Shown here one piece after another: positions 1,512 to 60,024 of a stretch of DNA of 64,000 nt. This stretch comes from Nitrospinales bacterium. Lineage in GTDB: Bacteria > Nitrospinota > Nitrospinia > Nitrospinales > JAJDAT01. The DNA lies in assembly GCA_046757665.1 (NCBI GenBank), contig JBHHYO010000005.1, forward strand, positions 8,983-72,982, in the 5' to 3' direction. The notes beneath the pieces were generated by a model. That model had not been told where the DNA came from and did no database searches. It saw only the letters and a list, made by a program, of their open reading frames with translations. A program made the position numbers and the translations under genes. How positions within the stretch are numbered: position 1 is the stretch's first letter; each line of letters begins with the position of its first letter.

Positions 1512-1621
1512 CTCAAAGTTCGCCGTGGGCCGTTAATTGGCGGTTGAAATTATGGATTATAACGTATATTCGATTAAAAGCATTGCCTAAAAGAATTCCC
1601 TTTAACGACTTGGAGGAAAGC

Positions 1622-1891
1622 ATGAAAGAGCTTTGGATCGTGTTTGTTACGGTTTTTCTCGCCGAACTGGGCGACAAGACGCAAGTGGCGACGCTTCTGT
1701 TTGCCTCGGACGACAAGCTGAGCCGGGCGGGCGTGTTCGGCGCCGCCTCTCTCGCCCTGGTCCTCAGCAGTTTGCTGGCGGTCGTTTTCGGGACCTCCCT
1801 TGCCGGGTTCATCTCGCCGGAAAAAATCAAGTGGCTGGCCGGCGCGGGGTTTATCGCCGTCGGTATCTGGACCCTGATGGACGCCGGGTAA
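1622..1891 (+). CDS. TMEM165/GDT1 (UPF0016) family small membrane protein
   Basis: FLAELGDKTQ signature, three hydrophobic helices, GGAGG RBS before ATG 1622. Confidence 0.88.
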   Translation: MKELWIVFVTVFLAELGDKTQVATLLFASDDKLSRAGVFGAASLALVLSSLLAVVFGTSLAGFISPEKIKWLAGAGFIAVGIWTLMDAG

Positions 1892-2103
1892 ACCTCCGCG
1901 ATGGGATTTCAATTTCAGTGTACCGATTGACTTTGGCGATAAGCTGTTTTAGCCTATTAGGAAAAAAAAGGACACCGGGCTTGCGGATTGGTTTATTCTT
2001 CTTTCTGTTAACTACATCCACTCCGGGCCTGCAACAGGTTTTCCGCACACTTTCCACCGTTCTTATTTTCGGTTGAAGTGGCCCAGAAAACAAGGGATCG
2101 GCC

Positions 2104-2994
2104 ATGGTGAAAATCAATGAAATCCTGAAAAACGGTGACCCTCTACCCTTGACCACCGACGACGGTCATTTGCGCATCATTTTTATTGGGGTCGGTTCCG
2201 CGTTTGCCAAACGCAACCGCCAGTCCAACATACTCATCATCCAGGGCGACCATCACATTCTGGTGGACTGCGGCACCCAGGGGCCGTTGGCGCTGGACGA
2301 CCTGGGGCTGGACGTTCTCCAGGTGCGATGCTACCTGCCCACCCACAGCCACGCCGACCACATCGGCGGGTTGGAGGAAGTCGCCCTGACCAACCGGTAC
2401 ATAGCCCACAATAACGGCAAACCGCAGATGATTATCCTGCACGATTATCAGGACCTGCTGTGGACCAAGAGCCTGTCCGGCGGCGCGGAGTTTTGCGAGG
2501 CCAACCATGGGAAGTACCTGCAACTCAGCGATTTCTTCGATATCCTGCGTCCCTATCCCGTTCAGGTCAAGGGCCGGAAATTCTGGGTTTACAAACACGG
2601 CCCCATAGAAATCATGATCATGAAGACCCGGCACGCCCCGGGCTCCGCGCTCAATATAGACGAATCGCAATGGTGTTGCGGCGTATTCGTCAACCGCCGC
2701 GTATGGATTTCCGGCGACACCATGTTCGACGCCGAGTATCCGACCCGGTTCGCCCAGGATGCGGAAGTCATGTTTCACGATACGCAAATGTTTGTCGGCG
2801 GCGTACACGCCTCCTACAGTGAATTGACGACCCTGCCGCCCGAAATTCGGGCCAAGATGTATCTCTACCACTATGACGACAACTGGGACCACCCGGAAAA
2901 GTGGGTTAAAGACTCCGATCCCTTTACCGGCAACCCCGTCAAGGACGGTTTTCTGGGTTGGGCCCGGCAACAAGTCGCCTACGACTTCGACTGA
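2104..2994 (+). CDS. MBL-fold metallo-hydrolase
   Basis: GVGSAF, LVDCG, THSHADH (HxHxDH), SGDT, FHD and HY motifs. Confidence 0.88.
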   Translation: MVKINEILKNGDPLPLTTDDGHLRIIFIGVGSAFAKRNRQSNILIIQGDHHILVDCGTQGPLALDDLGLDVLQVRCYLPTHSHADHIGGLEEVALTNRYIAHNNGKPQMIILHDYQDLLWTKSLSGGAEFCEANHGKYLQLSDFFDILRPYPVQVKGRKFWVYKHGPIEIMIMKTRHAPGSALNIDESQWCCGVFVNRRVWISGDTMFDAEYPTRFAQDAEVMFHDTQMFVGGVHASYSELTTLPPEIRAKMYLYHYDDNWDHPEKWVKDSDPFTGNPVKDGFLGWARQQVAYDFD

Positions 2995-3032: not shown

Positions 3033-4004
3033 ATGATTGTCGTAACCGGCGGCGCGGGGTTTATCGGTAGCGCCCTGACCGCCGAACTCAATGCCCGCGG
3101 CCTCTCCGACATTCTGCTGGTGGACCAGGTTGACCACCCGGAAAAAGAGAAAAACCTGGCGCCCCTCGCATTCCGGGAACTGCGCTCGAAGGAACAGTTC
3201 CTCCAGGATGTCTTGACCCGTTCCCTGCGCGGCGTGGACGTCCTTTTTCATCTGGGGGCGTGTTCCTCCACCACGGAAACCGACGAAGCCTACCTGCGAA
3301 AAAACAACTTCGAATATACCCGCGATCTTGCCGGCTATGCGCTGGAGAACGACGTCCGGTTCATTTACGCCTCCAGCGCCGCCACCTACGGCGACGGCAG
3401 TCTCGGCTACGCCGACGACGAATCCCGGCTCGAAACCCTGCGGCCGCTCAATTCCTACGGCAACAGCAAACAGATGTTCGACCTGTGGGCGCACCGGCAA
3501 AACATCCTGCACCGGATCGTCGGACTAAAATATTTCAATGTGTACGGGCCCAACGAGTACCACAAGGAGGAGATGCAGAGCCTGGTTCGTAAAGGATTTT
3601 TCCAGATTCGGGAGACCGGCAAGGTGCGGTTGTTCAAATCCTACAAGCCCGAATACCCGGACGGCGGCCAGGTGCGGGACTTCATCTATATCAAGGACGC
3701 CGTGGCCATGACCCTGTTTTTTGCCGACCACCCCGGCCTGGGCGGGATATTCAACGTCGGCGCCGGAACCGCCCGCAGTTGGAACGAGTTGGCGCAAGCC
3801 CTGTTCACCGCCCAGGGCCGCGACACCCATATTGAATACATCGAAATGCCGGAATCCATCCGCCCCCAATATCAATATCACACCTGCGCGGAGATGGACA
3901 AGATCCGCCGGGCGGGGTACACCGCGCCTTGCCTGTCGCTGGAGGCGGGGGTCGCGGATTATGTGCAAAATTACCTCCTGCCCGGCAAATACCTGGGCGA
4001 ATAA
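3033..4004 (+). CDS. hldD: ADP-glyceromanno-heptose 6-epimerase
   Basis: VTGGAGFIGS, HLGACSSTTE, YASSAATYG, YGNSK, YFNVYGPNEYHK. Confidence 0.95.
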   Translation: MIVVTGGAGFIGSALTAELNARGLSDILLVDQVDHPEKEKNLAPLAFRELRSKEQFLQDVLTRSLRGVDVLFHLGACSSTTETDEAYLRKNNFEYTRDLAGYALENDVRFIYASSAATYGDGSLGYADDESRLETLRPLNSYGNSKQMFDLWAHRQNILHRIVGLKYFNVYGPNEYHKEEMQSLVRKGFFQIRETGKVRLFKSYKPEYPDGGQVRDFIYIKDAVAMTLFFADHPGLGGIFNVGAGTARSWNELAQALFTAQGRDTHIEYIEMPESIRPQYQYHTCAEMDKIRRAGYTAPCLSLEAGVADYVQNYLLPGKYLGE

Positions 4005-4192
4005 AACACGCCCGCCAACCCGTCACCGGCAGTCGCACCCCCCTCCCACCGGCCCGGCAAAAAAAAATGGCGGGCCGCAACCCGCGAACCTATATTAAAT
4101 ATTAAGAGGAAATCCGGGTTAAATTCCCGTAGCGAAAAAAGCCTCGGCAAACCCGCTCTTCAACGATCCACTTTTTCATCGGGAGGTGGACA

Positions 4193-4600
4193 ATGGATGA
4201 CACCATGCAGGAAATCGGCCATTACATGAGTTCGCCCGTACTGAGCATAGAGTCCGAGGCAACCGTCCAGGAAGCGGCACAGTACATGCGCGCCCAGCAT
4301 GTCGGCGCGCTTCTGGTCAAGGAATTCGACGAGTATGTGGGCATCATCAGCGAATCGGATTTGAGCCACCGGGTTATCGGCGGCGGATTGAACCCCGAAA
4401 CCACCCTGGTTTCAACGGTCATGACCCGGACCATACATTCCATGGACCGCTACCTGCCCGCGGAAGAGGCTGACGAGTTCATGCGCAAACACAAGATTCA
4501 CCATCTCGCCATCACTCAGGAGGACAAAATCGTCGGTATGGTTTCCATCAAGGATTTTATTTCCTTCTACTACACCCGATCCTTCCAGATGATGGAATAG
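4193..4600 (+). CDS. Stand-alone CBS-domain pair protein
   Basis: Two CBS repeats (YMSSPV...VGIISESD; VMT...IVGMVSIKD); GGAGGT RBS. Confidence 0.88.
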   Translation: MDDTMQEIGHYMSSPVLSIESEATVQEAAQYMRAQHVGALLVKEFDEYVGIISESDLSHRVIGGGLNPETTLVSTVMTRTIHSMDRYLPAEEADEFMRKHKIHHLAITQEDKIVGMVSIKDFISFYYTRSFQMME

Positions 4601-4779
4601 CCCTCCCTGGCGCGGACCGGAACACGGGTTCCTCCTGTCCGGTCCGCGGACGAAGCCATCTTCCCACCTCGGAACAATCGCCACAGCGCTTGCCGGGAAA
4701 ATCCTTCAAGGTGGCTCGTTTTGTTTTATACTGGTTATGTTCATTAATGCACGCCAATCCATCGGTAGAGGAGCGCCTT

Positions 4780-5934
4780 GTGAAAGCCCTGGTTCTGGAC
4801 ATCAAGCGGGAAGACTGGGAGCGCACTACGGGATTGACCCTAACCCGCATGAGCGAGCCGCGGCTGAGTGAATCCAAACACCCGGAAGACGCCGACAAGG
4901 TTATCGTCAAACCCCGGTTTACGGGCTTTTGCGGATCGGACAAGGGAATATGGTTTCGCCACGCCTTCAAGGACATGATTTTCGATTCGCTGGAGGCGAA
5001 TGGCCAGCCGTACCGCATTTGCGGACACGAGCTTTTGGGAGAGATTGTCGATGCCGGTTCGACGGCCTCGAAGGCTTATGGGTGCCAACCCGGCGACATG
5101 GTTTCCGCCGAGTCGCATATCTTTTGCGGCCATTGCCACCAGTGCCGGATCGGCGATGCCCACGTCTGCGCCAATCACTTGATTATCGGTATCTCCACCG
5201 ACGGTTGCTTCGCGGAATACGTGAAACTGCCCGCCCGGGAGCTTTGGAAAACGGACACGGAGCGCATCCGTCCGGAAGTGGCGGCGATACAGGAGCCGCT
5301 GGGCAATGCGGTCCATGCCTGCTCGCGGGTGGACCTGCGCGGCAGGACCGTCGCGGTGTTCGGTTGCGGCACCATCGGCTTGTTGACTATTCTGGTGGCG
5401 CGCGCCATGGGCGCCGCCTTCATCGTCGGCGTTGACCCCAACACCGCCAACCTGGAGCTGGCGCAAAAACTGGACGTGGATTTGGCCCTGCGCGTCGCGG
5501 CGCCTGAAAACGCCCGTTGCCTCCCCGACCGGGAAATCGTCGAGCGGATCAAACAAAACTGCTTCGGCGAAGGCGTCGATCTGGCCCTGGAAATGTCCGG
5601 CAGCAACCAGGCGCTGAACACCGCCATCGCCGCCACCCGCGCCGGCGGCGACGTCATCCTTTTCGGCATCTCCGCGGGCGACTACACCATAACCGATTTC
5701 CAGCAGATCATCATGTATGGGAAAACCCTGCACAGCGTCGTCGGCAGAAAAGTGTTTCAAACCTGGTACACCCTGAGCAACTTGCTTCAGTCCCGGGGCC
5801 ATAATCTCCAGGACAAAATTTACGAGGTGATTCTGAACCGGGGCCGCGGAACCATTTTCCCTTTCCGAAAATTTGAAAAGGAAACATTCGAGCAGGCCCT
5901 CCGGAAACACCCGAAAATCATTTTGCAATATTGA
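4780..5934 (+). CDS. tdh: Zn-dependent L-threonine 3-dehydrogenase-like protein
   Basis: CGSD, GHE, CGHCHQC...C zinc motifs, EPLGNAVH, GCGTIG; GTG start after AGGAG; adjacent to kbl. Confidence 0.85.
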   Translation: MKALVLDIKREDWERTTGLTLTRMSEPRLSESKHPEDADKVIVKPRFTGFCGSDKGIWFRHAFKDMIFDSLEANGQPYRICGHELLGEIVDAGSTASKAYGCQPGDMVSAESHIFCGHCHQCRIGDAHVCANHLIIGISTDGCFAEYVKLPARELWKTDTERIRPEVAAIQEPLGNAVHACSRVDLRGRTVAVFGCGTIGLLTILVARAMGAAFIVGVDPNTANLELAQKLDVDLALRVAAPENARCLPDREIVERIKQNCFGEGVDLALEMSGSNQALNTAIAATRAGGDVILFGISAGDYTITDFQQIIMYGKTLHSVVGRKVFQTWYTLSNLLQSRGHNLQDKIYEVILNRGRGTIFPFRKFEKETFEQALRKHPKIILQY

Positions 5935-5954
5935 AATTTATTAGGTGATTCGTC

Positions 5955-7139
5955 GTGGCAGACCCTTTCCTCGATATGATCCGGGCGGAACTGGAGCAGA
6001 TCCGCCAGGCGGGGTTGTACAAGGACGAGCGCGTCCTGCAATCGCCGCAACAAACGCATATCACGGTTCCCGGTGGAGAGGTCATCAACTTTTGCGCCAA
6101 CAATTATCTCGGCCTCGCCAACCATCCGGAAATCCTGCGCGCCGCAAAAGACGCTCTGGACCGTTTCGGATACGGCATGGCGTCGGTGCGGTTCATTTGC
6201 GGAACCCAGGAAGCGCACAAACGGCTCGAGCGGAAAATTTCCGGGTTTTTGCGAACCGAGGACACGATTCTTTACTCGTCCTGCTTTGACGCCAACGCCG
6301 GTTTGTTCGAGGCTTTATTGAGCGAAAAAGACGCCGTTATCAGCGACAAATTGAATCACGCCAGCATTATCGACGGCATCCGGTTGTGCAAAGCCGAGCG
6401 GCGGCGTTTCCGGCACGCGGATATGGGTCACCTGGAAACGCAATTGAAAAAACCGGCCCGATTCCGTTTGATCGCCACCGACGGCGTGTTCAGCATGGAT
6501 GGCGACGTGGCGGACCTTGCCGGCATCTGCGCCCTGGCGGAGCAATACGGCGCCCTGGTGATGGTGGACGACTCGCACGCCACGGGGTTTTTCGGCCCCA
6601 CCGGCCGCGGCAGTATCGAATACCGCGGCGTCATGGGCCGGGTCGATCTCATCACCTCCACGTTCGGCAAGGCGCTCGGCGGCGCCTCCGGCGGTTTTGT
6701 CTCCGGCAAACGGGAGATTGTCGAATACCTGCGCCAGCGGTCGCGGCCCTATCTGTTTTCCAACTCCCTGTCCCCCGTGATCGCCGCCACCACGTCGGCG
6801 GCCATTGATTTGATCACGCGGTCCGGGGAGCTGATTCAAAAACTCCAGAGCAACGTCGGTTATTTTCGGGACAAGATCGGCCAGGCCGGATTCGACATCC
6901 GGCCCGGCGACCATCCGATTATTCCCATCATGCTGGGCGAGGCTCGCCTGGCGCATGACATGGCCGGCGCATTGCTGAAGGAGGGGATTTACGTCATCGG
7001 CTTCAGCCATCCCGTGGTTCCGCGGAACCAGGCGCGTATCCGCATCCAGATTTCCGCCGCCCACGAGCGCGAGGACCTGGACCGCGCCGTGGCCGCCTTC
7101 CGCAAGGTAGGGAAACAACTCAATGTCCTCGCCCGCTGA
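5955..7139 (+). CDS. kbl: Glycine C-acetyltransferase (2-amino-3-ketobutyrate CoA ligase)
   Basis: [51 protein letters not shown]. Confidence 0.95.
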
Positions 7140-50467: not shown

Positions 50468-51691
50468 TCAAGTCGATTGCCCGCCCTCCCCGCTTGCCCC
50501 GGCGGGCCGTGGTTTTGCGGGGAAACCGGGGACGGCGCACCGGCTCAACAAGCTGAACGCGATCAGGCCCACCAGCATTGTGGGAGCAATATGCGCCGGG
50601 AAATTGACCGTCGCTGAACCGCCGAACAAAAGAAGTGAACACAGCAAAATCCATTTCTCCCGGTTCAACGGTTTCAAGTTTCCCAAAGGAATGGCCACGG
50701 CGCCGACCAGCAAGATCATGCCCACAAGGCCCGCCTCATACAGGAATTGCAGGAAATCGTTGTGCGCGTAGGTGAAGACGCCGTACGTCTTCATTTTCTG
50801 TTGCCGCGGAAATTGTTCCTTGAACGTGCCCAGACCATGGCCCAGGAGCCAATGGGTTTTGTATTGCTCAAGGATTTCGGCGTAAATGATTTTGCGGATT
50901 TTGATGGATTGAATCGGCCCGGCTTCCCGGTTCACGCCGCGGCCCGCGGCGGGCGAATATTTTTCCGCAATCACTGCCGCCAGCACGGCCGTCATGACGA
51001 CCCCCGCCACCAGGGCGCGCTTCTTGTTCAGGAAAAAAAAGACGAAAGGGAAACCGACCAGGACAAAACTCATCCAGTCGTTGGGGTTGCCGAATACTCC
51101 GTTGACCCGCAAATGCGGAACCACCTCGGGCAGTTGCAGGTCCATGGCGACATCCATGCGGTCGCCGACTTTCCGGTAAGTGATTTTTTTGAGATAGTTG
51201 TTGCCCGGCACCGCGTGCTCCCCTTCCTCGAGTTTTCCGGCGCGGATCAGTTCGTCGGTGTATTGCTTGACATACCGTGCGCTGTCATAGCGAATCGCCG
51301 CGTTCACCACGGAAAGAATGGGATGCAGGTGGAAATACTGAAGAGCGCCGTACCCCAGCACCACGCAGAACGACAGGGCGACGGCTTTTTTCAGCCAGTG
51401 AAAATCGTCCTCGGCCCACTGGATGAACAGGTAGAGGCCGGAGAAAGCCAGCACCGGGATCAACGCGGCGAAGGACACGTCGTTGTCACGGAAAACGGAA
51501 AAGAGGTCGAGGTAGGCGAGCAGGCAGGCGTAACTTTTGTTGTAAAACCAGATGCCATAAACCAGGAGGAGGGCCAGGATGCCGACAACGGCTTTCTCCT
51601 TGACCTGCCGGCTCCAGTCGCCCTCCATGGGCATGGAAAATATCCACGGCGAAAGGAGCACGGCGGCGGCGATGACGTATTTGTAGAACAT
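50468..51691 (-). CDS. O-antigen ligase-like membrane protein (possible pilin oligosaccharyltransferase)
   Basis: Multi-[29 protein letters not shown]. Confidence 0.75.
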
Positions 51692-51708: not shown

Positions 51709-52353
51709 CTAAAAAACCTTCACGATCAGGGAGGCGACTGTATCCTGCGACTGGGCGGTGAAAATCGCCGATCCGGTTTCCGCGCCTGTTAAGGTAACCG
51801 AGAAAATGACTTCCCGTGTCGTCTCGCCGGGGATCGTGGCTACCGGGGGCGAGGCGCTGGGAACGGCCCTCGTCCCCTCTGCCAGGGTAAGCGTGTTCGT
51901 GTTCTGGGAAATCGTCGCCGCCGGCGATATGGAATAGTTGGCGGTAACAGACGTTGACTTCTGCGGCGAGGCGGCGGTCGTGTCAAACTCTGTGGGCCGG
52001 GCCGCAAAGACCAGCGTTCCAAGCGCCCCGGAACTGAGCGTGCAGTCCTTCTTGTTGGTGTCGATGTTGCTGGCGGAGGTGGCGCAAATACAGTCCTTGC
52101 TGTCGACGCTGGTGCAGGTCAGGGACACCGTGATCAAGGCGGTGTCCTTTACCTTGACCTCGTTGCGGTTGGTGGTCGTCAACTTGATCGTGCGGTCGCC
52201 TCCCACCGCGATGGTCCCGCCCACGGTGGTGGTCACGCTACCGTCCACTCCGCTTGCTTCGTTCTTAACCGACCCGCACCCGGAAACCGCGCCCATCAGG
52301 GAAAAGACGAGCACGGCAATTCCCCAACTTCGGCTTGATTGGCTGATCTTCAT
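51709..52353 (-). CDS. Thr/Ser-rich lipoprotein
   Basis: Lipobox VSGC; beta-rich, four further Cys; GAGGG RBS. Confidence 0.75.
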   Translation of the reverse strand: MKISQSSRSWGIAVLVFSLMGAVSGCGSVKNEASGVDGSVTTTVGGTIAVGGDRTIKLTTTNRNEVKVKDTALITVSLTCTSVDSKDCICATSASNIDTNKKDCTLSSGALGTLVFAARPTEFDTTAASPQKSTSVTANYSISPAATISQNTNTLTLAEGTRAVPSASPPVATIPGETTREVIFSVTLTGAETGSAIFTAQSQDTVASLIVKVF

Positions 52354-52370: not shown

Positions 52371-53447
52371 TTAATTTTCCAACACTTTTTTCAAGACCGC
52401 ATCCGGGACCTGGTCCACAATTTCGACGGCGCCGATTTCCTTTGCCAGGACAAATCGTATGCGTTCGTCGTGGGACTTTTTATCCAGGTGCATGGATTCG
52501 ATTAATTGCCTGGCCGGCAAATCCGGCACACGGGACGGCAGGCCGAATTTTTCCACCAGGGAGGCCAGTCGGCGGCACACCGTATCCGGACACAGCCCCA
52601 TTTCCCGGGAAAGCCTGGCCGCGTAAACCATGCCGATGGCTATGGCCTCGCCGTGTTTATAGACCGCATAATTCGTTACAGCTTCAATCGCATGTCCCAG
52701 AGTATGGCCAAAGTTAAGGATCATCCGCAAACGGTTTTCCTTTTCGTCTCTTTGCACCACCCGGCCCTTGATGGCACAGGAGGTTTCGACAATATGCTCC
52801 AGGCACGCGGGGTCCCGTTGCAGGATATTTTCCGCATGGTCGTCGAGATAGTCGAACAATTGGGCGTCGGCGATGACGCCATACTTGATGACCTCGGCCA
52901 GCCCCGCCCGGAATTCCTCCTGGGGCAGGGTGTTCAGGGTGTCGAGGTCGATGACAACCGCCCTGGGCTGATAAAAGACGCCGATCATGTTTTTCCCCAG
53001 AGAATGATTGACGGCGGTTTTGCCGCCGACACTGCTGTCCACCTGGGCCAGGAGGGTGGTGGGCGCCTGGATGAAAGGGATTCCTCTCATGAACGTCGCC
53101 GCCACAAACCCGGTGAGGTCGCCGATCACACCGCCGCCGAGAGCCACCAGCACCGACCGGCGGTCGCAATTCAATTCCAGAAGCCGGCCAAACAGTTTTT
53201 CCGCCTCTCCCAGGGATTTGTGCTCTTCTCCCTCGGGCACCTGGATGCAATCCGTTTTCAATCCCGCACGGTGCAGGCCGCCGACGGTTTTCTCGCCATG
53301 CAACCGGTCGATGGACGGATGCGTCACCACCACCGCCCGCGAGGTTTGCACCGCTTCGCACAGCAAGCGCCCGGTGTGTTCCAAAAGGCCCTGGCCGATC
53401 AGTATTTCATAACTTCTTTCTCCCAGATCGACGTTCAACCGCTTCAT
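52371..53447 (-). CDS. aroB: 3-dehydroquinate synthase
   Basis: GEEHKS, ALGGGVIGDL.GF, PTTLLAQVDSSVGGKT, LNFGHT.GHAIE, HGEA. Confidence 0.97.
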   Translation of the reverse strand: MKRLNVDLGERSYEILIGQGLLEHTGRLLCEAVQTSRAVVVTHPSIDRLHGEKTVGGLHRAGLKTDCIQVPEGEEHKSLGEAEKLFGRLLELNCDRRSVLVALGGGVIGDLTGFVAATFMRGIPFIQAPTTLLAQVDSSVGGKTAVNHSLGKNMIGVFYQPRAVVIDLDTLNTLPQEEFRAGLAEVIKYGVIADAQLFDYLDDHAENILQRDPACLEHIVETSCAIKGRVVQRDEKENRLRMILNFGHTLGHAIEAVTNYAVYKHGEAIAIGMVYAARLSREMGLCPDTVCRRLASLVEKFGLPSRVPDLPARQLIESMHLDKKSHDERIRFVLAKEIGAVEIVDQVPDAVLKKVLEN

Positions 53448-55351
53448 CGAGACGCCGGCAGTTCGATGTTTTCGACAATCGTCGGAGTGATGAAAATCAA
53501 CAGTTCGTTGACGACATCCTGGTTGGATTGACGCCGGAACAACGCACCCAGCAAGGGAATCTTGCCGAACAAGGGAACCATGTCGCGGGTTTCGTTGACG
53601 GTGTTTTCATAGAGTCCGCCAAGCACCGTGGTCTCGCCGTTTTTCACCAGGACTTCGGTCTGCGCTTCCTTGGTCGTAATGGACGGCACGTTGTCGACGG
53701 ACATGGCAAAGTCGGCGGCGTTCTTGGTCGCCAGGATTCTCATGTAAATATTGCCGTCCGCCGTAATATGCGGCGTAACCGTCAGACTGATATCGGCGTC
53801 GACGAACTGGATTTGCGTGCCGTCCTGGGAGACCGTTTTGAAAGGGATTCTGCGGCCGCTACGTATGACGGCCTTCCGGTTGTTGAGCGTGGTGACTTTG
53901 GGACTGGACAGGATTCTTCCTTTTCCCTGCGTTTCGATGGCGGACAATTGAATATCCAACTGGGTATTGCCGACAAAACTGCCCAGCGCCAGCCCCAGTC
54001 CCCCGGCGGTGCCGGCGGTTGACGGCAAATCCACGATGAATCCGGAAGGAGTCAGGGACGTGCCTGCCGTTCCCAGGCTGGGCGGCCCCAGGTTGACGGT
54101 ATTGGGGAACTCGTTGGGCGTGATGCGCGTCAACCGCCCCCCCCACTGGATGCCCAGGCTTTGCACAAAATTTTTGTTGACCTCGACGATCCGCGCCTCG
54201 ATCATCACCTGCCCCATACGCACGTCCAATGTTTCGATCAACGCCGCCATGCGGTCGATTCGGGCTTGCGTATCGGTCAGAATGATGGTGTTGGTCTGCT
54301 TGTCCATGGTGATCTTCCCGCGGGGGGATGTCATCGGTTTCAGATTTTTGATCAACGCCAGGATATCGGCATAATTGATGCGCACGGTCTGGGTAATCAT
54401 GTCGGCGGAGTCTTTTCCCGTCTGGACGGCGAGCGTACGCGCCTGCTCCACCGTTGCGCGGGTGGCGGCTTCCTGGTCCAGCGTGCTTTGCGTGGCGACT
54501 CTCAGAATGCCGTTAAAGCATTCGCGGCCGAGACCGTTATTCCTCATGACGGTGTTCAAGGCGACGTTCCACGGAACATTGATCAGTTTCATGGTGATGG
54601 TTCCCGCCACTTCCGGGGAAATCACGAGATTCAAGCCGCTTGTTTCGGCAATGATTCTCAGGATATTGCGCAAATCGGCCTGTTGGAAATCGAATGAGAT
54701 TTTTCCCTTTTCGCCGTTGCCGGCCAGGATGGGATCGCAGGGGTCTCCGGTCGGGTTTTGCTCCGCCACGGCGCCGCGTTCGTCATTCGGGCGCGCCAGT
54801 TGTCCAACCACTTCCGTTGAGATGGGCACTGCGGGTTCCGCCACGGATTTTTTTGCCGGGGGTGATTGCCCGGCTTCCTGCGCCACCGGTTGCAACCTGA
54901 TCAACAACCGGTTCTGCTTCGGTTGGCTGATCGAGTAGGACACCCGGCTGTTCAGGGAAACTTCCAGCCGCAACACTTCGGCTTCCTTGAAAAAAATCGG
55001 ATGTATCGATTGGACGACGCCCCGGTTGACTTCCATGGGCCGGGTTAAAATTCCTTCCCGCATTCGCGGCAGGTCCATGATCAGGCGAATGGGATTGGAA
55101 AGCTTGAAGGCGGTGTATTGGATGGCGTCCGAGGCCTCGATGCTGATCGAGACGTTTTCTCCATCCTGCTCGGTAGTCAGGCCGGTAATCGCCCGTACCG
55201 CTTCCGTTTTCGGCGCGGGTTGGGCGGCATTTTGCGCCATCCGCTCATCCAAGGAAGCCGTTTTTTGCGCCGCGAAAACCAGGGGAATCCACATCGCACA
55301 AAGGCTGAATGCTAAACAACGCAATAGTCTTTTCAATGTATTGGCGCTCAA
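53444..55351 (-). CDS. pilQ: Type IV pilus secretin PilQ (AMIN, N0, N-domain, secretin)
   Basis: AMIN (NPIRLIMDLP), ISFDFQ.AD...VPW, QVMIEARIVE, SSPKV.T, VTPHIT, VP..GKIP.LG.LFR, ELLIFITP. Confidence 0.93.
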   Translation of the reverse strand: MSANTLKRLLRCLAFSLCAMWIPLVFAAQKTASLDERMAQNAAQPAPKTEAVRAITGLTTEQDGENVSISIEASDAIQYTAFKLSNPIRLIMDLPRMREGILTRPMEVNRGVVQSIHPIFFKEAEVLRLEVSLNSRVSYSISQPKQNRLLIRLQPVAQEAGQSPPAKKSVAEPAVPISTEVVGQLARPNDERGAVAEQNPTGDPCDPILAGNGEKGKISFDFQQADLRNILRIIAETSGLNLVISPEVAGTITMKLINVPWNVALNTVMRNNGLGRECFNGILRVATQSTLDQEAATRATVEQARTLAVQTGKDSADMITQTVRINYADILALIKNLKPMTSPRGKITMDKQTNTIILTDTQARIDRMAALIETLDVRMGQVMIEARIVEVNKNFVQSLGIQWGGRLTRITPNEFPNTVNLGPPSLGTAGTSLTPSGFIVDLPSTAGTAGGLGLALGSFVGNTQLDIQLSAIETQGKGRILSSPKVTTLNNRKAVIRSGRRIPFKTVSQDGTQIQFVDADISLTVTPHITADGNIYMRILATKNAADFAMSVDNVPSITTKEAQTEVLVKNGETTVLGGLYENTVNETRDMVPLFGKIPLLGALFRRQSNQDVVNELLIFITPTIVENIELPASR

Positions 55352-57120
55352 GACTTCTCCTGTGCTTCATGCGATTCATGGCTTTCGTGGGAAAGTTCCA
55401 TTTCCCGTGTAGTGGACGTGATGTTTCCGAGGTAATCCCTTGCACGTTCCACAATGATCAGTTTTTCCGGTTCAATCAATTCAACCACGCCGAAATGGGG
55501 TCCGATGAGAGTTCCCGGTTTAACGGTATGACCTCTCGCGTCCTCGGTTTCGATCAGCGCAACCGGTTCCATTCCGCCCCAGAGGACCCCGACGAAGCGC
55601 ATCGATTCCAGTTTCCTCGCCTGCAAAGGCGACTGCGGCATACTGGCAACCCGCCCGTTGGCCTTGTCTATCAGTTGTCCGTAAAACTTGACGAGGCTGA
55701 TGTAACTCTTCCTTTCCATGACCTGTAGCCGGGATTTTTCCCGGAACAATTTCGCGTAGTGTTCCAGGTCGGCGTAGAGCCGCGGGTCGTTTTCCCGGAT
55801 ATCCCGATAGAGTTCAAAGGGAATGGGTTTGAGCGCATTGAGTTCGTTGTCGAACCGTCTGGCTTGCCGGGCTTTCTCCGCCGCCAGCCTGGCGTTTTCC
55901 GCCCGCGTCCGTTCCGCCGCCAGAAGGTCCTTTTCTTCCTGCGCCAGAATACTCCGCGAAGCAATCCGGATGATGTTGTCGGAACATTCCTGAGCGAGGC
56001 CGGTGTTTTTCAGGATCATGAACAAAGCCAGATTCCAGGGAACGTCCGTAAGCTTCATGGTCAACGTTCCCTTGACATCGGGCGAGATCACCAGGTTAAA
56101 ACCGCCGATTTCGGAAATGAACCGCAAGGTATTGCGTAAGTTGGCTTGTTTGAAGTCGAACGAAATCTTGCTTTTGTTGCCGAGCAAGATCCCCTGGCAA
56201 TTATCGCTGGTGGTCGTCTCCACAACGGCGGCCTTGGCGAGCACTTCCGCTTCACGTTTCAGGTCATCGCGCGTGGCGACGCGGACCACCGTATCGAAAC
56301 ACTCGCGGCCAAGCCCATTGTTCTTCAGGATTTTGCTGAAGGCCCGGTTCCAGGGAACGTCGATCAGCCGCATGGCCAAAGTTCCGGAAACTTTCGGCGC
56401 AAAAACCAGGTTGAAGCCTCCGGTCTCCGCGATGAGTTGCAGGATGCGCCGCAGGTCGGCGCGATGGAAGTCGAGGGAGATTTTTTCTTTGTCACCGGAG
56501 AAAATTTTATCGCAGGGGTCTTCCATATCGGAATGTTGCACCGCGGGCCCCCCTGCCGGCGGTTTTTCCAGGGCCAACCGCACCGTTTTGCCATCGGTCG
56601 CTCCTCGTTCAGAGGCGCTCCGGGAAGCCTGCATCAGGGTGATCAGCAATTTGTTTTTCTGCGGCTTGGAGATTTTATAGGGAACTTCCCGGTTCAGCTC
56701 AATCTCCAGGCGCAACACTTGCGCCTCGGAAAAATACATTGGCTGGATGGCGCTGACGGCCCCCTGACCGATTTTGATTGGGCCGGTGATCACCCCTTCC
56801 TCCATTTGCGGCAAATCCAGAACCAGGCGAAGAGGGTTGTACAGCTTGAAGGCGGTATACTGGATTTTGTCCGTCGCCTCGATGCTGATGGAGACCTCTG
56901 CCTCTTCTTGCCGCGTGGTGAGGCCGGTGATGCGCGCCAAGGCAGGCTCCAGGTTTTGCGAAGGCGCCTCCGGCTGTCTGCCGGCGTCTTCGGTGGCCGC
57001 CTTTTGCTCCATCGCCGCGGACGGCGATTTTTCCTCGGCGGCAACCACGGCTACCCCCGCCGCGACGCAAAAACCAGCGACCCAAAAAAGCAGTATTGAG
57101 GTAAACCTTTTTTTGTTCAA
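55348..57120 (-). CDS. Secretin-less PilQ N-terminal region (AMIN + two N0/STN) fused to a PilP domain
   Basis: N-terminal part aligns by eye with PilQ at 53444-55351; C-terminal part aligns with PilP at 57117-57920. Confidence 0.85.
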   Translation of the reverse strand: MNKKRFTSILLFWVAGFCVAAGVAVVAAEEKSPSAAMEQKAATEDAGRQPEAPSQNLEPALARITGLTTRQEEAEVSISIEATDKIQYTAFKLYNPLRLVLDLPQMEEGVITGPIKIGQGAVSAIQPMYFSEAQVLRLEIELNREVPYKISKPQKNKLLITLMQASRSASERGATDGKTVRLALEKPPAGGPAVQHSDMEDPCDKIFSGDKEKISLDFHRADLRRILQLIAETGGFNLVFAPKVSGTLAMRLIDVPWNRAFSKILKNNGLGRECFDTVVRVATRDDLKREAEVLAKAAVVETTTSDNCQGILLGNKSKISFDFKQANLRNTLRFISEIGGFNLVISPDVKGTLTMKLTDVPWNLALFMILKNTGLAQECSDNIIRIASRSILAQEEKDLLAAERTRAENARLAAEKARQARRFDNELNALKPIPFELYRDIRENDPRLYADLEHYAKLFREKSRLQVMERKSYISLVKFYGQLIDKANGRVASMPQSPLQARKLESMRFVGVLWGGMEPVALIETEDARGHTVKPGTLIGPHFGVVELIEPEKLIIVERARDYLGNITSTTREMELSHESHESHEAQEKS

Positions 57121-57920
57121 GATTTCTCCCGTTTCGCTTTGAGGTTTTTGATGAGTTGAATTTTCCGGATCCGTGACTTGACGTCGCCGCGAAAATCCCT
57201 ATCGCGCTCCAACACGGTAATATAATCGTGGCTGATGGATTGGACCACGCCGAAACGAGACCCCACAAGCATTCCCTGGCGCACAGTATGCCCTTTGTGG
57301 CCCGATGTTTCAACCAGGGCCACCGGTTTCGCTCCTCCCCAAACGATTCCGACCAGCCTCAAGCTTTTCAAGTCCGTCTGCAACGGCGTTTTGGCCAGCC
57401 GTTTGCCAAATTCGTTGGCCTTGTTGATCAGCCGCTTGTAGACCCCGACCGTTTTCAAATAATCTTCGATGGTCAATTTTCGCAAACCGGTCTTTTCGCG
57501 GAACAGGCGGCTGTAATGGTCGAGATCGGCGTACAGGACAGGTGCGCGTTTCGCAATTTCCCGGTAAAGTTCGACGGGAATGAGGCCGAGAGATTTGACC
57601 TCCTTGCCAAATTCGGTGAATCTCTTGATTTTTCTCGCCTGCCTTTGCGAAGCCGCTTGTTGGCGGATTCTTTTGGCTCTTTTGACTTCGCTTTCGGTTT
57701 CGGTTTCCGTCACCAGGGGAACGAAGGGATCGCGTTTGGTCTGAGTCAGGTACTTTGGATGCAAAACGTAATCTCCGGTCCGGGATATCTTGTCCCGGTT
57801 GGCGGCCATCACCAGGGAAGACGGGGCTCCCAGCTTGACCGACCAGTCGACGGCGTGGAATCCAGATGTTGTCATCATGGCAAACATCGCCAGTACAAGG
57901 TGTTTTGTCGATTGGCGCAT
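57117..57920 (-). CDS. pilP: Type IV pilus assembly protein PilP-like
   Basis: KRDPFVP, TPLQ.DL.SLRLVGIVWG..PVALVE...GHTV..G..VG..FG.V. Confidence 0.82.
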   Translation of the reverse strand: MRQSTKHLVLAMFAMMTTSGFHAVDWSVKLGAPSSLVMAANRDKISRTGDYVLHPKYLTQTKRDPFVPLVTETETESEVKRAKRIRQQAASQRQARKIKRFTEFGKEVKSLGLIPVELYREIAKRAPVLYADLDHYSRLFREKTGLRKLTIEDYLKTVGVYKRLINKANEFGKRLAKTPLQTDLKSLRLVGIVWGGAKPVALVETSGHKGHTVRQGMLVGSRFGVVQSISHDYITVLERDRDFRGDVKSRIRKIQLIKNLKAKREKS

Positions 57921-57940
57921 GGGTTGCTGGGTCGCCGTGT

Positions 57941-58570
57941 TTATGTGTTCTTCTTTTTCGGTTTGGTGGCGGGCCGGTCCTCGGCGCCCTCAACATAACT
58001 GTAGGCCACCGCCACGGAACTGGTTGTTAACGGTTTTAACTTCGCACCTTCGGGCCCAATACTCTCAATCTTCATCTGGGTCAGATTGACCAGGTGGAGC
58101 AAATTCTGCACGGCGTCCAGGAAACCCATGGTTTTGTAAAACCCACCCTGCACGTCGATCTTTATCGGGGTCTCCTTGTAAAAATCGTTAGTCTCCTCCG
58201 GCAACGAACGAATGAGCACAATGTTCAATCCCAGGGACGTGCCGATTTCGGACACCTGCCTGAGGAAATTGACGATTTCCTGCCGGCTCGGCAGTTGGCT
58301 TTTGATTTGCGCCAGTTCCCCCTGCGCGGCGGCCAGTTTGGCGCGCATCTCGTCCTCTTTTTCGATGAGAGCCCGGTAATTTTTCAGCTTGTCTTCCGTC
58401 TGGGACTTTTTGGTCTGCAATGAATCGAACTCGATCTGAAGCAAACCGTACAGGGTCAAATGAAAAGCAACAAACAAAAGCACTCCCAGACCAAAGGCTC
58501 CCGCAAGCAAATGGGTAAATTTGATGTTGCTTAATTTATCATAAGGCAACTTGTCAAACAATTTTTCCAT
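57941..58570 (-). CDS. pilO: Type IV pilus assembly protein PilO
   Basis: N-terminal TM, coiled coil, QLPS..EI..FL, FY.E.PI.I.V.G.F; position in the pil cluster. Confidence 0.88.
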   Translation of the reverse strand: MEKLFDKLPYDKLSNIKFTHLLAGAFGLGVLLFVAFHLTLYGLLQIEFDSLQTKKSQTEDKLKNYRALIEKEDEMRAKLAAAQGELAQIKSQLPSRQEIVNFLRQVSEIGTSLGLNIVLIRSLPEETNDFYKETPIKIDVQGGFYKTMGFLDAVQNLLHLVNLTQMKIESIGPEGAKLKPLTTSSVAVAYSYVEGAEDRPATKPKKKNT

Positions 58571-58590
58571 ACCGGTCACACTCGAAAAAG

Positions 58591-58614
58591 CGCGACGCGA
58601 CGCGACGCGACGCG
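58591..58614. repeat. Pentanucleotide simple sequence repeat (CGCGA)4CGCG
   Basis: Perfect tandem tract 20 nt upstream of the pilO ATG. Confidence 0.9.
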
Positions 58615-58687
58615 CGGTCAAACTGCAAACGCCTGTACATGTCTTTGCCGCGGCATGGTTGGTCCCGCTCCTGCCGCCGCCTGAGTT

Positions 58688-59782
58688 TCATATTTTGTAA
58701 TCGAACCTCCGGGTGGCCAGCCCCAGGGCCACGGTAGCGACGGGGGCCAGCTCCGCAATACACGCCAGATCGAATTTCTTGCGGTTGACTGTCACGGATT
58801 TCAAGGGGTCCTGTATCTCCACGGGCAAGTCCAGCCGGTCGGCAAACAAACCGTCCACGCCGCGGATCAAAGCGCCTCCCCCGCTTAACAGCACCCGCTC
58901 GACCGACGTCCCCATGGTGTTTTTAAAACTCTCCAGGGCGGTTTTAATTTCTTCGAAGACGGGCTCAAACGATTCGACAATGACCTTGATGACTGCATCC
59001 TTGTCGGTCTTCCCGGGAATTTCTCCTTTTTTGCAGGCATTTGCCTCTTCAAAAGAGATGCCCAGATCGGCCATCAGCTTTTCGGTACACTGAACGCCAC
59101 CAATATGAAAATCCCGGGTAAAATAGATATCGCCCCGGTACAACAGATTGATATGGGTAAAGGAGGCCCCCAGGTCGACCAGGGCCACCGCGCCCAGGCG
59201 CTCCAGGTTGGTCGACAGGCCGGCGGCATTCATCATGGCAAAAACATCCAGGTCGACGATCACCGGCTTCAGACCTGCCTCTCCAAGAATCTCCATCCGG
59301 TTGTCTATGGTTTCCTTTTGCGCGGCGACAAGGAGAACTTCCATCAGGTCCTGGTCGGAATCATCCGAATCGTCCGGCCGCGCGGTTTTCTGATCCACGG
59401 TCTTGAGGATTTGATAATCCATGCTGACATCATCGATATTGAATGGAATATACTGTTCCGCCTCTTCGCGGATTTTCTCGCTAAGCTCTTCGGAGGACAT
59501 GATCGGCAGTTTGATTTTTTTGATGATCACCGTTTCTCCGGAAACCGAGGCCACGGCATGTCGGGTTTTGATATTTTCGGCTTTTACGAGCCGGGCCAGG
59601 GCATCCACGACATGGTCCATGTCCTTGACAGCGCCATCGGTAATCGACTCGGGGGAAAGGGGCATCATGCCAAAACTCAACAGCTCGTACGCATTATTAC
59701 GCAAACGCCCCAATTGCGCCAATTTTATGGAATAAGAACCAATATCCACCGCGACCAGGGGCGTTTTTTCGGAAAGAAACAT
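58688..59782 (-). CDS. pilM: Type IV pilus assembly protein PilM
   Basis: VDIGS.SIK, EAEQYIPF.IDDV..DY, VLLVAA, VDLGAS, LSGGGA, A.GLA.R. Confidence 0.93.
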   Translation of the reverse strand: MFLSEKTPLVAVDIGSYSIKLAQLGRLRNNAYELLSFGMMPLSPESITDGAVKDMDHVVDALARLVKAENIKTRHAVASVSGETVIIKKIKLPIMSSEELSEKIREEAEQYIPFNIDDVSMDYQILKTVDQKTARPDDSDDSDQDLMEVLLVAAQKETIDNRMEILGEAGLKPVIVDLDVFAMMNAAGLSTNLERLGAVALVDLGASFTHINLLYRGDIYFTRDFHIGGVQCTEKLMADLGISFEEANACKKGEIPGKTDKDAVIKVIVESFEPVFEEIKTALESFKNTMGTSVERVLLSGGGALIRGVDGLFADRLDLPVEIQDPLKSVTVNRKKFDLACIAELAPVATVALGLATRRFDYKI

Positions 59783-60024
59783 GATGTCGTTCCCAGTGCT
59801 AGAGTAACAGCCCAAATGCTAACGAAAGTAGCATACTTTGACAAGCATAGAATGAAATAATTTTTTATTTACCAAGCGGTTGTCGAAAGGCGGGAAACAC
59901 GCGAATCCTCCCGGCAACGGTCCCGCACCCCTGCTTCACAATGCTCATTGGACCGTCGAAGCGCGAGAGTTCATACGCGAACACCAGCAGGCAACGCCGG
60001 AACGGTTTTTCAACTCTCTTGAAA

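Follow-up and report, generated by a model that had tools for sequence, protein, structure and literature searches.

In type IV pilus machines, the motor platform of the inner membrane is connected to the pore of the outer membrane through the contact between the HR domain of PilP and the N0 domain of the secretin PilQ; in type II secretion, the counterpart of this contact is GspC–GspD. The N-terminal part of PilP (lipoprotein signal/membrane-proximal) binds inner-membrane PilN/PilO in other species. In Thermus thermophilus PilQ, several stacked periplasmic N-domain rings lengthen the conduit. According to PMC3441751, the beta1–beta2 hairpin of HR meets the first strand and the first helix of N0 in the PilP–PilQ contact. 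Type II secretion has a second HR protein, GspB/OutB, which attaches to the secretin N0 as GspC does and is cross-linked to peptidoglycan (PMC9239104).

We analyzed a 64,000-nt stretch of DNA from a Nitrospinales bacterium (the window), in which a chimeric open reading frame, named X here, lies between pilP and pilQ. A preliminary description had reported an intact 590-aa frame overlapping each neighbor by 4 nt, and this was borne out by the sequence. The features of the locus are as follows.

55348..57120, minus strand: X, whole chimeric gene, 590 aa; signal peptide-AMIN-N0a-N0b-helical region-HR, with no secretin domain
57037..57120, minus strand: probable Sec signal peptide, aa 1-28 (by eye); TTG start after GGGAGA
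56626..56943, minus strand: AMIN domain, aa 60-165, a copy of the PilQ AMIN (Pfam PF11741, 37.2 bits)
56221..56526, minus strand: N0a domain, aa 199-300, with Cys203/Cys274 and a C-terminal helix (BLASTP, NCBIfam, AF2)
55921..56211, minus strand: N0b domain, aa 304-400, with Cys308/Cys379 (Pfam STN/N0, BLASTP)
55915..55935, minus strand: approximate pilQ'::pilP' fusion junction, aa ~396-402, within the long helix after N0b
55645..55920, minus strand: helical region, aa 401-492, common to the middle of Nitrospinota PilP
55381..55644, minus strand: PilP-type HR beta-domain, aa 493-580 (Pfam PF04351, 36.8 bits; Foldseek)
57117..57920, minus strand: pilP, 267 aa, source of the 3' half; 4-nt overlap with X
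53444..55351, minus strand: pilQ secretin, 635 aa, AMIN-N0-N1-secretin, source of the 5' part; 4-nt overlap with X
57941..58621, minus strand: pilO (Pfam PF04350, 80.7 bits)
58688..59815, minus strand: pilM (Pfam PF11104, 229.5 bits)

The TTG start codon of X lies within the TGA-containing end of pilP, and the TGA of X lies within the TTG start of pilQ; both 4-nt overlaps share TCTTGA. By eye, a Shine–Dalgarno-like motif precedes the start of X (GGGAGA) and that of pilQ (AGGAGA). The N-terminus of X (MNKKR, a hydrophobic stretch and VVA/AEE) looks signal peptide-like by eye, in line with the preliminary description, and P0003, a homologue, begins in a comparable way. This stretch, followed by an A-x-A-type site, was the only hydrophobic segment noted by eye, and no canonical lipobox was seen in the same inspection. 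The public gene call of X, P0001, uses a later start and is 554 aa long, so that the signal peptide is missing from it.

A Pfam scan of X gave matches that all exceeded their respective cut-offs: AMIN (71–160, 37.2 bits), GspD-like N0 (322–356, 35.8 bits), STN (341–387, 39 bits) and PilP (495–576, 36.8 bits vs. a cut-off of 25.6). It showed no match to Secretin (PF00263) or to N1 (Secretin_N, PF03958), the latter being present in a variant from lineage g8. The NCBIfam PilQ model TIGR02515 matched X in two stretches, reaching 155 bits, below the cut-off of 284, and covering model positions 2–100 only, as expected for two N0 copies lacking a barrel. Neither the Pfam nor the NCBIfam scan revealed similarity to GspB. 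In BLASTP, residues 10–301 of X were 45% identical to the neighboring PilQ (2e-77), N0b aligned with the same PilQ N0 as N0a (2e-34), and residues 402–576 were 43% identical to the neighboring PilP over 175 aa (2e-47). The shared motifs that the preliminary description had quoted for AMIN, the two N0 copies and the diverged PilP C-terminal region in place of the secretin barrel are visible in these alignments. Lacking a barrel, X cannot form an outer-membrane pore.

The alignment to PilP begins at residue 402; residues 1–400 comprise the signal peptide, AMIN and the two N0 domains, and the N-terminal PilP segment (lipoprotein signal/membrane-proximal) is absent. X and PilP (PF04351) share the C-terminal HR beta-domain, with the N-terminal third of PilP swapped for a PilQ-derived AMIN-N0-N0. 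With PilQ, X shares AMIN, N0 and the Cys pair flanking N0, as well as a helix after N0 like that described for pilus secretins in PMC3441751, but N0 is duplicated and N1 (in this form) and the barrel are missing. The AMIN domain is 58% identical to that of PilQ (AF2 pLDDT >95), and the helical region is 47% identical to PilP 93–169, with the motif IPxELYRxI...LYADLxHYxxLFREK (pLDDT >90). The fusion junction was placed where the alignments to PilQ and PilP meet, within an AF2 helix spanning 389–421. The AF2 model as a whole has a mean pLDDT of 85.2, and every domain exceeds 90. Foldseek matched HR to the PilP structures 2y4x, 2lc4 and 2ivw (TM by target 0.59–0.83; 0.81–0.83 for 2y4x), N0 to the PilQ N0 structure 4ar0, and AMIN to the AmiC structure 4bin. 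The Cys pair noted earlier around each N0 copy was located at C203/C274 (N0a) and C308/C379 (N0b), and at C205/C278 in PilQ; both columns are invariant in all 57 Nitrospinota N0 domains examined.

X is neither an assembly artefact nor a dead remnant. Logan contigs from two DNA runs of one study cover 54800–58000 without a difference and span both junctions, although they perhaps derive from the source sample of X and are therefore not independent support. A search of sequencing runs listed no RNA run containing the sequence. Of the 14 carrier genomes, 13 have an open frame; only in G002 is the gene split (382 + 160 aa). The dN/dS of the chimera was 0.11–0.15 between orthologues of the sister genus g2, 0.16–0.22 in g3 and 0.12 in g8, similar to the values of the same genome pairs for pilP (0.13–0.26) and pilQ (0.08–0.20); the selection proposed in the preliminary description thus finds support. 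Among orthologues from family f1 (P0002, P0003 and P0004), N0b (81, 74 and 59% identity to X) and HR (86, 66 and 55%) are the best conserved domains. A functionless duplication remnant or assembly chimera, with which the split copy in G002 would agree, is contradicted by the open frames, by the low dN/dS (0.11–0.22 overall), by the retention of every domain in homologues at 48–73% identity, by the agreement of the contigs and by the confident prediction of all folds; we give it next to no credence. The domain make-up of X, its paralogy to both neighbors and its conservation under purifying selection are established.

The architecture is not unique to the window. A chimera of the N0...HR type is present in 14 of the 120 Nitrospinota genomes searched. 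Four copies of the AMIN type occur in public protein data, counting the window's own (P0001); P0002 (73% identity), P0003 (55%) and P0004 (48%) have the same full architecture as X. Related architectures are N0-N0-HR adjoining pilQ, orphan N0-N0-HR elsewhere, and AMIN-N0-N1-HR. The g2 and g3 forms, with two N0 domains and HR, lack AMIN, so wall anchoring is not essential to the chimera family. In f1 and g8 the gene lies between pilP and pilQ in the operon, with a 4-nt overlap with a neighbor. In g3, six copies are located outside the pil operon, in neighborhoods that vary, so a role outside the type IV pilus machine is possible. The source genome encodes two further secretins besides PilQ, three in total, which X might serve.

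In an exhaustive HMMER search covering 1.84 billion proteins, no N0+HR protein outside these types was listed. In the ESM Atlas, no cluster combined N0 and PilP, and the feature matches (0.81 at most) are leads only. A word-based homologue search with residues 300–590, a method that reaches close relatives only, returned 7 proteins. Among partial-coverage matches of a genome-contig scan that resembled fusions and were labeled 'Deltaproteobacteria' or 'uncultured bacterium' (L076, L081, L092, L103, L104, L106 and L107), the two inspected, L107 and L081, were rejected as fusions, being ordinary pilP-pilQ pairs. No description of an N0-HR fusion was found in the limited literature collection searched. 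The only naming of the chimera family that we saw in public records is the NCBI label of P0003, 'PilP', which hides its special make-up. Secretin-less multi-STN/N0 repeat proteins (P0130, P0135, P0158 and P0165) resemble X in carrying N0/STN, often repeated, without a working barrel, but have TPR or FecR_C domains where X has the PilP HR.

In domain trees, the N0 domains of X group with family-f1 PilQ N0 and its HR groups with family-f1 PilP. More generally, each chimera groups with its own lineage's PilP and PilQ in the HR and N0 trees, and AU tests rejected a single clade of all chimeras for both HR (delta lnL 84.5, p 1.9e-5) and N0 (delta lnL 69.0, p 5.6e-6). The fusion junction also differs, falling after N0 in f1 and g3 and after N1 in g8. 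Together, the trees, the AU tests and the differing junctions make several separate origins through tandem duplication of pilP-pilQ probable, with the same kind of fusion apparently recurring in three lineages. One old origin followed by lineage-wise gene conversion, that is, concerted evolution, could mimic recurrent origin in the trees, but is made less likely by the differing junctions. Within the window, the longest DNA repeat between paralogous parts is 31 nt, which indicates that the duplication is old, and recent gene conversion was rejected on this ground. The origin by pilP-pilQ duplication put forward in the preliminary description is supported by the domain trees and by the 4-nt junction kept on both sides. 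Such an event would have run from mid-pilP to just beyond the N0 of pilQ, giving pilP - [pilQ 5' :: pilP 3'] - pilQ, and an internal duplication of the N0 domain in X would have followed.

From this make-up we infer how X may work. X would be an in-trans extension of the secretin periplasmic vestibule and, in addition, an adaptor. Its HR would dock edge-on onto the PilQ N0, as the HR domains of PilP and GspC/GspB do, displacing PilP from PilQ, while its N0 domain or domains would present an equivalent site to which the PilP HR could dock. The chain PilM/PilO - PilP - X - PilQ would thereby grow by one or two ring layers, and in the window's form AMIN would pin the added layer to peptidoglycan. 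In Thermus thermophilus PilQ the extra N domains are part of the secretin chain, whereas X would supply them in trans, together with an HR. To the reading as a whole, in which X is a genuine periplasmic component, kept by selection, of the type IVa pilus machine in some Nitrospinota, arose by tandem duplication and acts as vestibule extension and adaptor, we assign a probability of about 0.5.

The contact surfaces are consistent with this reading. By hand count, the HR hairpin is 57% identical to PilP and each N0 copy is 70% identical to PilQ in the contact stretches, compared with 43–45% overall. The best conserved parts include the HR beta1–beta2 hairpin and, in both N0 copies, the beta1/alpha1 edge. 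None of the three outcomes that the preliminary description had named as refuting came about: contigs span the junctions, the architecture recurs under low dN/dS, and this edge of N0 is conserved. A predicted complex of the PilP HR with X N0a-N0b gave an ipSAE of 0.35 (runs 0.27, 0.37 and 0.35) against 0.01 for the best of three controls, with at least 96% contact agreement between runs and a partner pLDDT of at least 77. Among solved complexes, 116 of 157 reach the mark applied, as do 2 of 215 mismatches; passes at 0.60 or below comprise 18 of the 157 solved complexes and both passing mismatches. As like complexes have already been solved, the pass may reflect memorization, and the verdict on the docking of PilP onto the adaptor N0, as envisaged in the preliminary description, was 'weak support'. 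Nothing was found in favor of its further premise of a wide periplasm: a search by term of three papers on Nitrospinota (PMC3578206, PMC8026999 and PMC10839748) gave no statement on an unusually wide periplasm or on pili. Of the earlier interpretation, the duplication origin and the selection are supported; the wide periplasm finds no support in these papers. Points that speak against the preferred reading include the unlinked g3 copies, the AMIN-less g2 and g3 forms, the split gene in G002, the two further secretins and the weak outcome of the complex prediction, obtained for a textbook-like pair.

GspB/OutB offers a functional comparison. There, too, a second HR protein stands beside a canonical one (GspC there, PilP here); N0 binding and contact with peptidoglycan, described for GspB/OutB in PMC9239104, are for X predicted from HR and AMIN. 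OutB has an inner-membrane anchor, neither N0 nor AMIN, and does not derive from the secretin gene, whereas X is, judging from its sequence, a soluble or wall-bound periplasmic protein with N0 domains of its own. X might nevertheless be a scaffold of this type and nothing else, with HR on the PilQ N0 and AMIN on peptidoglycan, aiding secretin assembly and centring in the wall; its N0 domains would then add to or stabilise the vestibule ring without docking PilP, and PilP and X would share or compete for the PilQ N0. OutB and OutC bind equivalent N0 interfaces through their HR domains, and in the wall the secretin is scaffolded by OutB (PMC9239104), X combines HR with an AMIN of the peptidoglycan-binding type, and the predicted docking of PilP on the X N0 is only weak. 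However, purifying selection maintains two N0 domains and HR in the AMIN-less g2 and g3 forms, N0b matches HR in conservation, including the strand/helix edge contacted by PilP in PilQ, and at least one N0 is retained in all three apparent origins. We therefore consider a pure scaffold unlikely.

X could be a decoy or brake, titrating PilP through N0 and/or capping the PilQ N0 through HR, which would uncouple the inner-membrane platform from the secretin and so lower or time pilus assembly. It has both partner domains but neither a pore nor the PilP N-terminus, and separate regulation is conceivable for the orphan g3 copies. Such a role would require neither two N0 copies nor AMIN or N1, and the in-operon position with 4-nt overlaps in f1 and g8 suggests that synthesis is coupled and roughly stoichiometric and not that expression is regulated; a decoy is distinctly improbable. 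As both halves of a known interaction are present in X, its HR might instead bind the N0 of the next X, giving a ring or head-to-tail stack of its own, maybe for another secretin. The three secretins in the genome and the g3 copies unlinked to pil genes would suit this, but the nearest relatives of its N0 and HR are the cluster's own PilQ and PilP, and the gene lies between pilP and pilQ in f1 and g8, which makes self-assembly very unlikely.

Extending the preferred reading, in which X lengthens the vestibule and links PilP to PilQ, we tentatively propose that Nitrospinota evolved a 'daisy-chain' module carrying both halves of the PilP–PilQ contact, at least twice and probably three times. This module may insert extra ring layers between platform and secretin, with the conduit tuned in trans and an invariant disulfide-type Cys pair stapling each N0, a broader proposal to which we give somewhat less than even odds. 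One protein here carries both halves of the contact linking the inner- and outer-membrane parts of the pilus machine, and X thereby poses a defined structural question, namely whether HR/N0 pairs stack like building blocks. That such a fusion is under selection and seemingly recurs within a single phylum suggests a simple way in which evolution can add layers to trans-envelope machines. If the proposal is true, the length or layering of a secretin conduit would be tunable in trans by duplicating and fusing the machine's own interface domains.

Between pilP and pilQ, the pil cluster of the window carries X, an open reading frame of 590 amino acids:

58688..59815 (-), pilM
57941..58621 (-), pilO
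57117..57920 (-), pilP, 267 aa
55348..57120 (-), X, 590 aa, TTG start
53444..55351 (-), pilQ, 635 aa
52371..53447 (-), aroB

X overlaps both pilP and pilQ by 4 nt; TCTTGA occurs at both junctions, and a Shine-Dalgarno-like hexamer was seen by eye 5' of each start. pilM and pilO are separated by a 66-nt gap (58622-58687), and this cluster has no pilN. By tblastn and a PF05137 search, a lone PilN-like gene (213 aa) lies near the end of contig C81 of the same genome (L057 1489..2130, (-)), and the order in the sister genus g2 is pilM-pilN-pilO-pilP-X-pilQ. Two more secretin genes, each with a PilN-like match nearby (contigs C2 and C45), and five T2SSE-type ATPase matches point to about three secretin-based machines in this genome. 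The two genes downstream of aroB encode a Thr/Ser-rich 214-aa protein that begins like a lipoprotein and has no Pfam assignment (51709..52353, (-)) and a 407-aa membrane protein of the Wzy_C/O-antigen-ligase type (50468..51691, (-)); a link of these two genes to pilin glycosylation is only a guess.

Pfam assigned AMIN (residues 71-160), STN/N0 (322-387) and PilP (495-576) domains to X, each above cut-off, and detected no Secretin domain. The NCBIfam PilQ model matched twice with no more than its first ~100 positions, scoring 155 bits vs a cut-off of 284. In BLASTP, residues 10-301 were 45% identical to the adjoining PilQ (2e-77), the second N0 aligned to the same PilQ N0 as the first (2e-34), and residues 402-576 were 43% identical to the adjoining PilP (2e-47). 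Together, these analyses recovered every element listed in the preliminary description, including the Cys pairs (C203/C274 and C308/C379 in X; C205/C278 in PilQ). X was also modeled with AlphaFold2 from a 65-row alignment of chimeras (proteins joining a PilQ-type N0 to the PilP-type HR beta-domain), N-terminal parts of PilQ and C-terminal parts of PilP (mean pLDDT 85.2, pTM 0.48):

X 1-55 and 168-196, disordered stretches
X 62-163, AMIN sandwich, confident
X 204-300 and 309-388, two alpha/beta N0 domains, confident, with a helix after each
X 389-421, long helix, confident
X 424-493, helical region, confident
X 508-576, beta-domain, confident

A Foldseek comparison of this model with the PDB retrieved PilQ (4av2_A, 3jc8_Qa), the N0 domain of N. 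meningitidis PilQ (4ar0, 33% identity), PilP structures (2lc4, 2y4x, 2ivw and 3jc8_Pa, TM by target 0.47-0.83) and E. coli AmiC (4bin). The Cys pair flanking N0 was invariant in all 57 Nitrospinota N0 domains from 26 genomes and metagenome proteins; M. xanthus PilQ lacks the second Cys at the corresponding alignment position, as V. cholerae PilQ apparently does too. The pair is probably a lineage-specific disulfide.

Logan contigs from two DNA runs (two samples of one study, recorded as hydrothermal vent metagenome) each spanned 54800-58000 in one piece with zero differences, covering both X junctions, as the preliminary description had proposed to check; this support is weak because the runs may be the source of the window DNA. 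The runs retrieved for this DNA included none of RNA. The gene is supported more strongly by three further public proteins, P0002, P0003 and P0004, which have the complete AMIN-N0-N0-HR architecture at 73%, 55% and 48% identity to X; the record of P0003 is labeled 'pilus assembly protein PilP [Nitrospinota bacterium]'. The public call of X (P0001, 554 aa) begins at a later ATG, 36 codons 3' of the TTG, and loses the signal peptide (window 57012..57120), which we judged by eye. We favor the TTG start because P0003 has a hydrophobic N-terminus comparable to that of X from TTG. The hydrophobic N-terminus is likewise missing from P0002 (548 aa) in the alignment, and its 5' end may have been cut off as in P0001.

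The gene order pilP - [pilQ 5' :: pilP 3'] - pilQ keeps on both sides the 4-nt pilP/pilQ overlap, also present in the Nitrospinota locus L016 and taken as ancestral. This layout is the expected product of one tandem duplication running from mid-pilP to just past the pilQ N0. The duplication origin proposed in the preliminary description is thus supported by gene order and overlaps, as well as by the N0 and HR trees. In the window, the longest DNA repeat between paralogous parts of pilP, X and pilQ measures 31 nt. The pil locus of Nitrospinota is duplication-prone. Genome G035 carries a tandem pair of full-length pilQ genes (L015 2316..4124 and 4178..5989), and in G026 a second, AMIN-less secretin gene (N0-N1-secretin) lies directly 3' of pilQ (L112 1506..3428 and 3406..4926).

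Using X residues 301-590, we searched 120 Nitrospinota genomes and mapped the ORFs and domains of fetched loci. Beyond the whole architecture in P0002-P0004, this comparison with related genomes revealed N0...HR chimeras in 14 of the 120, in three forms:

Form a (family f1), own genome and 4 of 5 genomes of g2, between pilP and pilQ: AMIN-N0-N0-HR in the own genome; signal peptide-N0-N0-HR without AMIN, 481-508 aa, in g2
Form b (genus g3, family f2), 6 of 23 genomes, away from pilOPQ: N0-N0-HR, 434-481 aa
Form c (genus g8, family f2), 3 of 3 genomes, between pilP and pilQ: AMIN-N0-N1-HR, 528-548 aa

Secretin_N was confirmed by Pfam in form c, and the neighborhoods of form b are mostly not conserved. 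In the g2 genome G002, the chimera is split into overlapping frames of 382 and 160 aa (L006/L024 1029..1511 and 1480..2628), reflecting either a frameshift or an assembly error; the fifth g2 genome (65% complete) gave zero matches to the query. In families f2, f3 and f4, PilP measures 460-512 aa and has a long N-terminal extension (L016 2231..3769, L019 3221..4717, L013 1979..3466, L010 2491..3879), which weakly matched DUF2059 in three of four scanned; in f1, where five of the six genomes searched have X, PilP is just 267-282 aa.

An exhaustive HMMER search of 1,835,955,588 representative proteins with a profile of N0b, helical region and HR gave 10,915 matches at E <= 0.001. Among the best 150 of these, P0125, P0121, P0002 and P0126 carried N0+HR and covered the full profile without a break, P0128 and P0129 were of the g8 type, and P0127 was a 237-aa fragment (profile positions 45-266) with PilP as its only Pfam domain; the remainder were PilP-only or N0-only. 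When one genome of each prokaryotic species was scanned, 51 loci were returned, 10 of them with near-full coverage; the titles of these 10 all name Nitrospinia, Nitrospinota, Nitrospina, Nitrospinaceae or Nitrospinales MAGs. Two partial-coverage matches with other taxon labels proved on inspection to be ordinary pilP-pilQ pairs and were rejected as fusions. As far as these searches reach, where any more distant fusions would rank below the best 150, the architecture is restricted to Nitrospinota, and the literature searched contained no description of an N0-HR fusion protein. Proteins with 3-8 STN/N0 repeats and no full secretin barrel were also encountered (P0130, P0135, P0158, P0165, P0171, P0183), some with TPR or FecR_C domains.

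Maximum-likelihood trees (IQ-TREE, LG+C20) were built for HR (42 rows x 169 columns) and N0 (57 rows x 98 columns) from 26 genomes and metagenome proteins, leaving out G002 and most PilP/PilQ of other genomes. In the HR tree, g3 chimeras formed a clade with g3 PilP (100/100), and the seven f1 chimeras with the four f1 PilP (97/92). In the N0 tree, every f1 copy grouped with f1 PilQ N0 (95/97), g3 N0a and N0b grouped together (98/86) adjoining f2 PilQ N0 (100/98), and the g8 copy stood beside g8 PilQ (91/81). N0b of the AMIN type and of the g2 type formed one clade (100/93), which points to a single origin of the two-N0 form in f1, AMIN having been lost afterward in g2. With chimera groups set by architecture ahead of tree building, AU tests rejected monophyly both of the chimeric HR domains (delta lnL 84.5, p 1.9e-5) and of the chimeric N0 domains (delta lnL 69.0, p 5.6e-6). 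The fusion junctions lie after N0 with a long helix in f1, after N0 with a short linker in g3, and after N1 in g8. The simplest reading is that chimeras arose independently at least twice, probably three times, and that N0 was internally duplicated independently in f1 and g3; a single ancient origin, with gene conversion later acting within each lineage, is a possible alternative.

dN/dS of the chimera and its parent genes (Nei-Gojobori, own script, codon alignments); ratios are rough because dS is 0.5-1.7, near saturation, and G015 pairs are mostly saturated
g2: chimera 0.11-0.15; pilP 0.13-0.18; pilQ 0.08-0.11 (5' part)
g3: chimera 0.16-0.22; pilP 0.15-0.26; pilQ 0.10-0.20
g8 (G031/G078): chimera 0.12; pilP 0.145; pilQ 0.11

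The chimera ratios (0.11-0.22) are clearly far below 1, and they bear out the selection suggested previously; for X of the window itself, presumed selection rests on intact orthologues with 48-73% identity. Across the f1 orthologues, conservation was highest in N0b and HR, lower in N0a and AMIN, and poor in the linkers.

PMC3441751 describes edge-on strand association of the PilP C-domain with PilQ N0, as in GspC-GspD, through the PilP beta1-beta2 hairpin and, on the N0 side, the first helix and strand. Counted from BLASTP, 19 of 27 residues of the N0 beta1/alpha1 stretch are identical to PilQ in both X copies, consistent with a retained PilP-binding surface, and 16 of 28 in the HR hairpin are identical to PilP; these predicted contact stretches are better conserved than the remainder. 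In a type II system, as PMC9239104 reports, OutB, a second HR protein, binds secretin N0 at a site equivalent to that of GspC, aids secretin assembly and is cross-linked to peptidoglycan; the same text points out that two HR domains would then compete for a single N0. X would resolve this conflict: if the HR of X took the PilQ N0, its N0 copies would replace the occupied site and restore a docking site for the PilP HR, which favors X as an adaptor or vestibule extension. We infer an arrangement in which PilP HR would bind X N0, X HR would bind PilQ N0, and AMIN would hold the wall.

A complex prediction of PilP HR with X N0a-N0b, each entered as an alignment, scored 0.35 vs 0.01 for the best of three controls (contact agreement between runs at least 96%, partner pLDDT at least 77), with the verdict 'weak support'. 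Among 157 solved complexes 116 also pass the mark, against 2 among 215 mismatches; passing scores <=0.60 came from only 18 of the 157 solved complexes and from both passing mismatches. Similar complexes have been solved, so the pass may reflect memory in the predictor. Rival readings of X are an OutB-like scaffold without PilP docking, a decoy, also raised in the preliminary description, and a self-assembling module, possibly for one of the genome's two other secretins. Since the literature searched on Nitrospinota contained no mention of pili or periplasm width, a wide periplasm as the reason for X stays a guess.

X is a putative accessory component of the type IVa pilus machine that consists of interface domains taken from the machine itself, and the apparent recurrent birth of such chimeras is the most interesting aspect of the finding.
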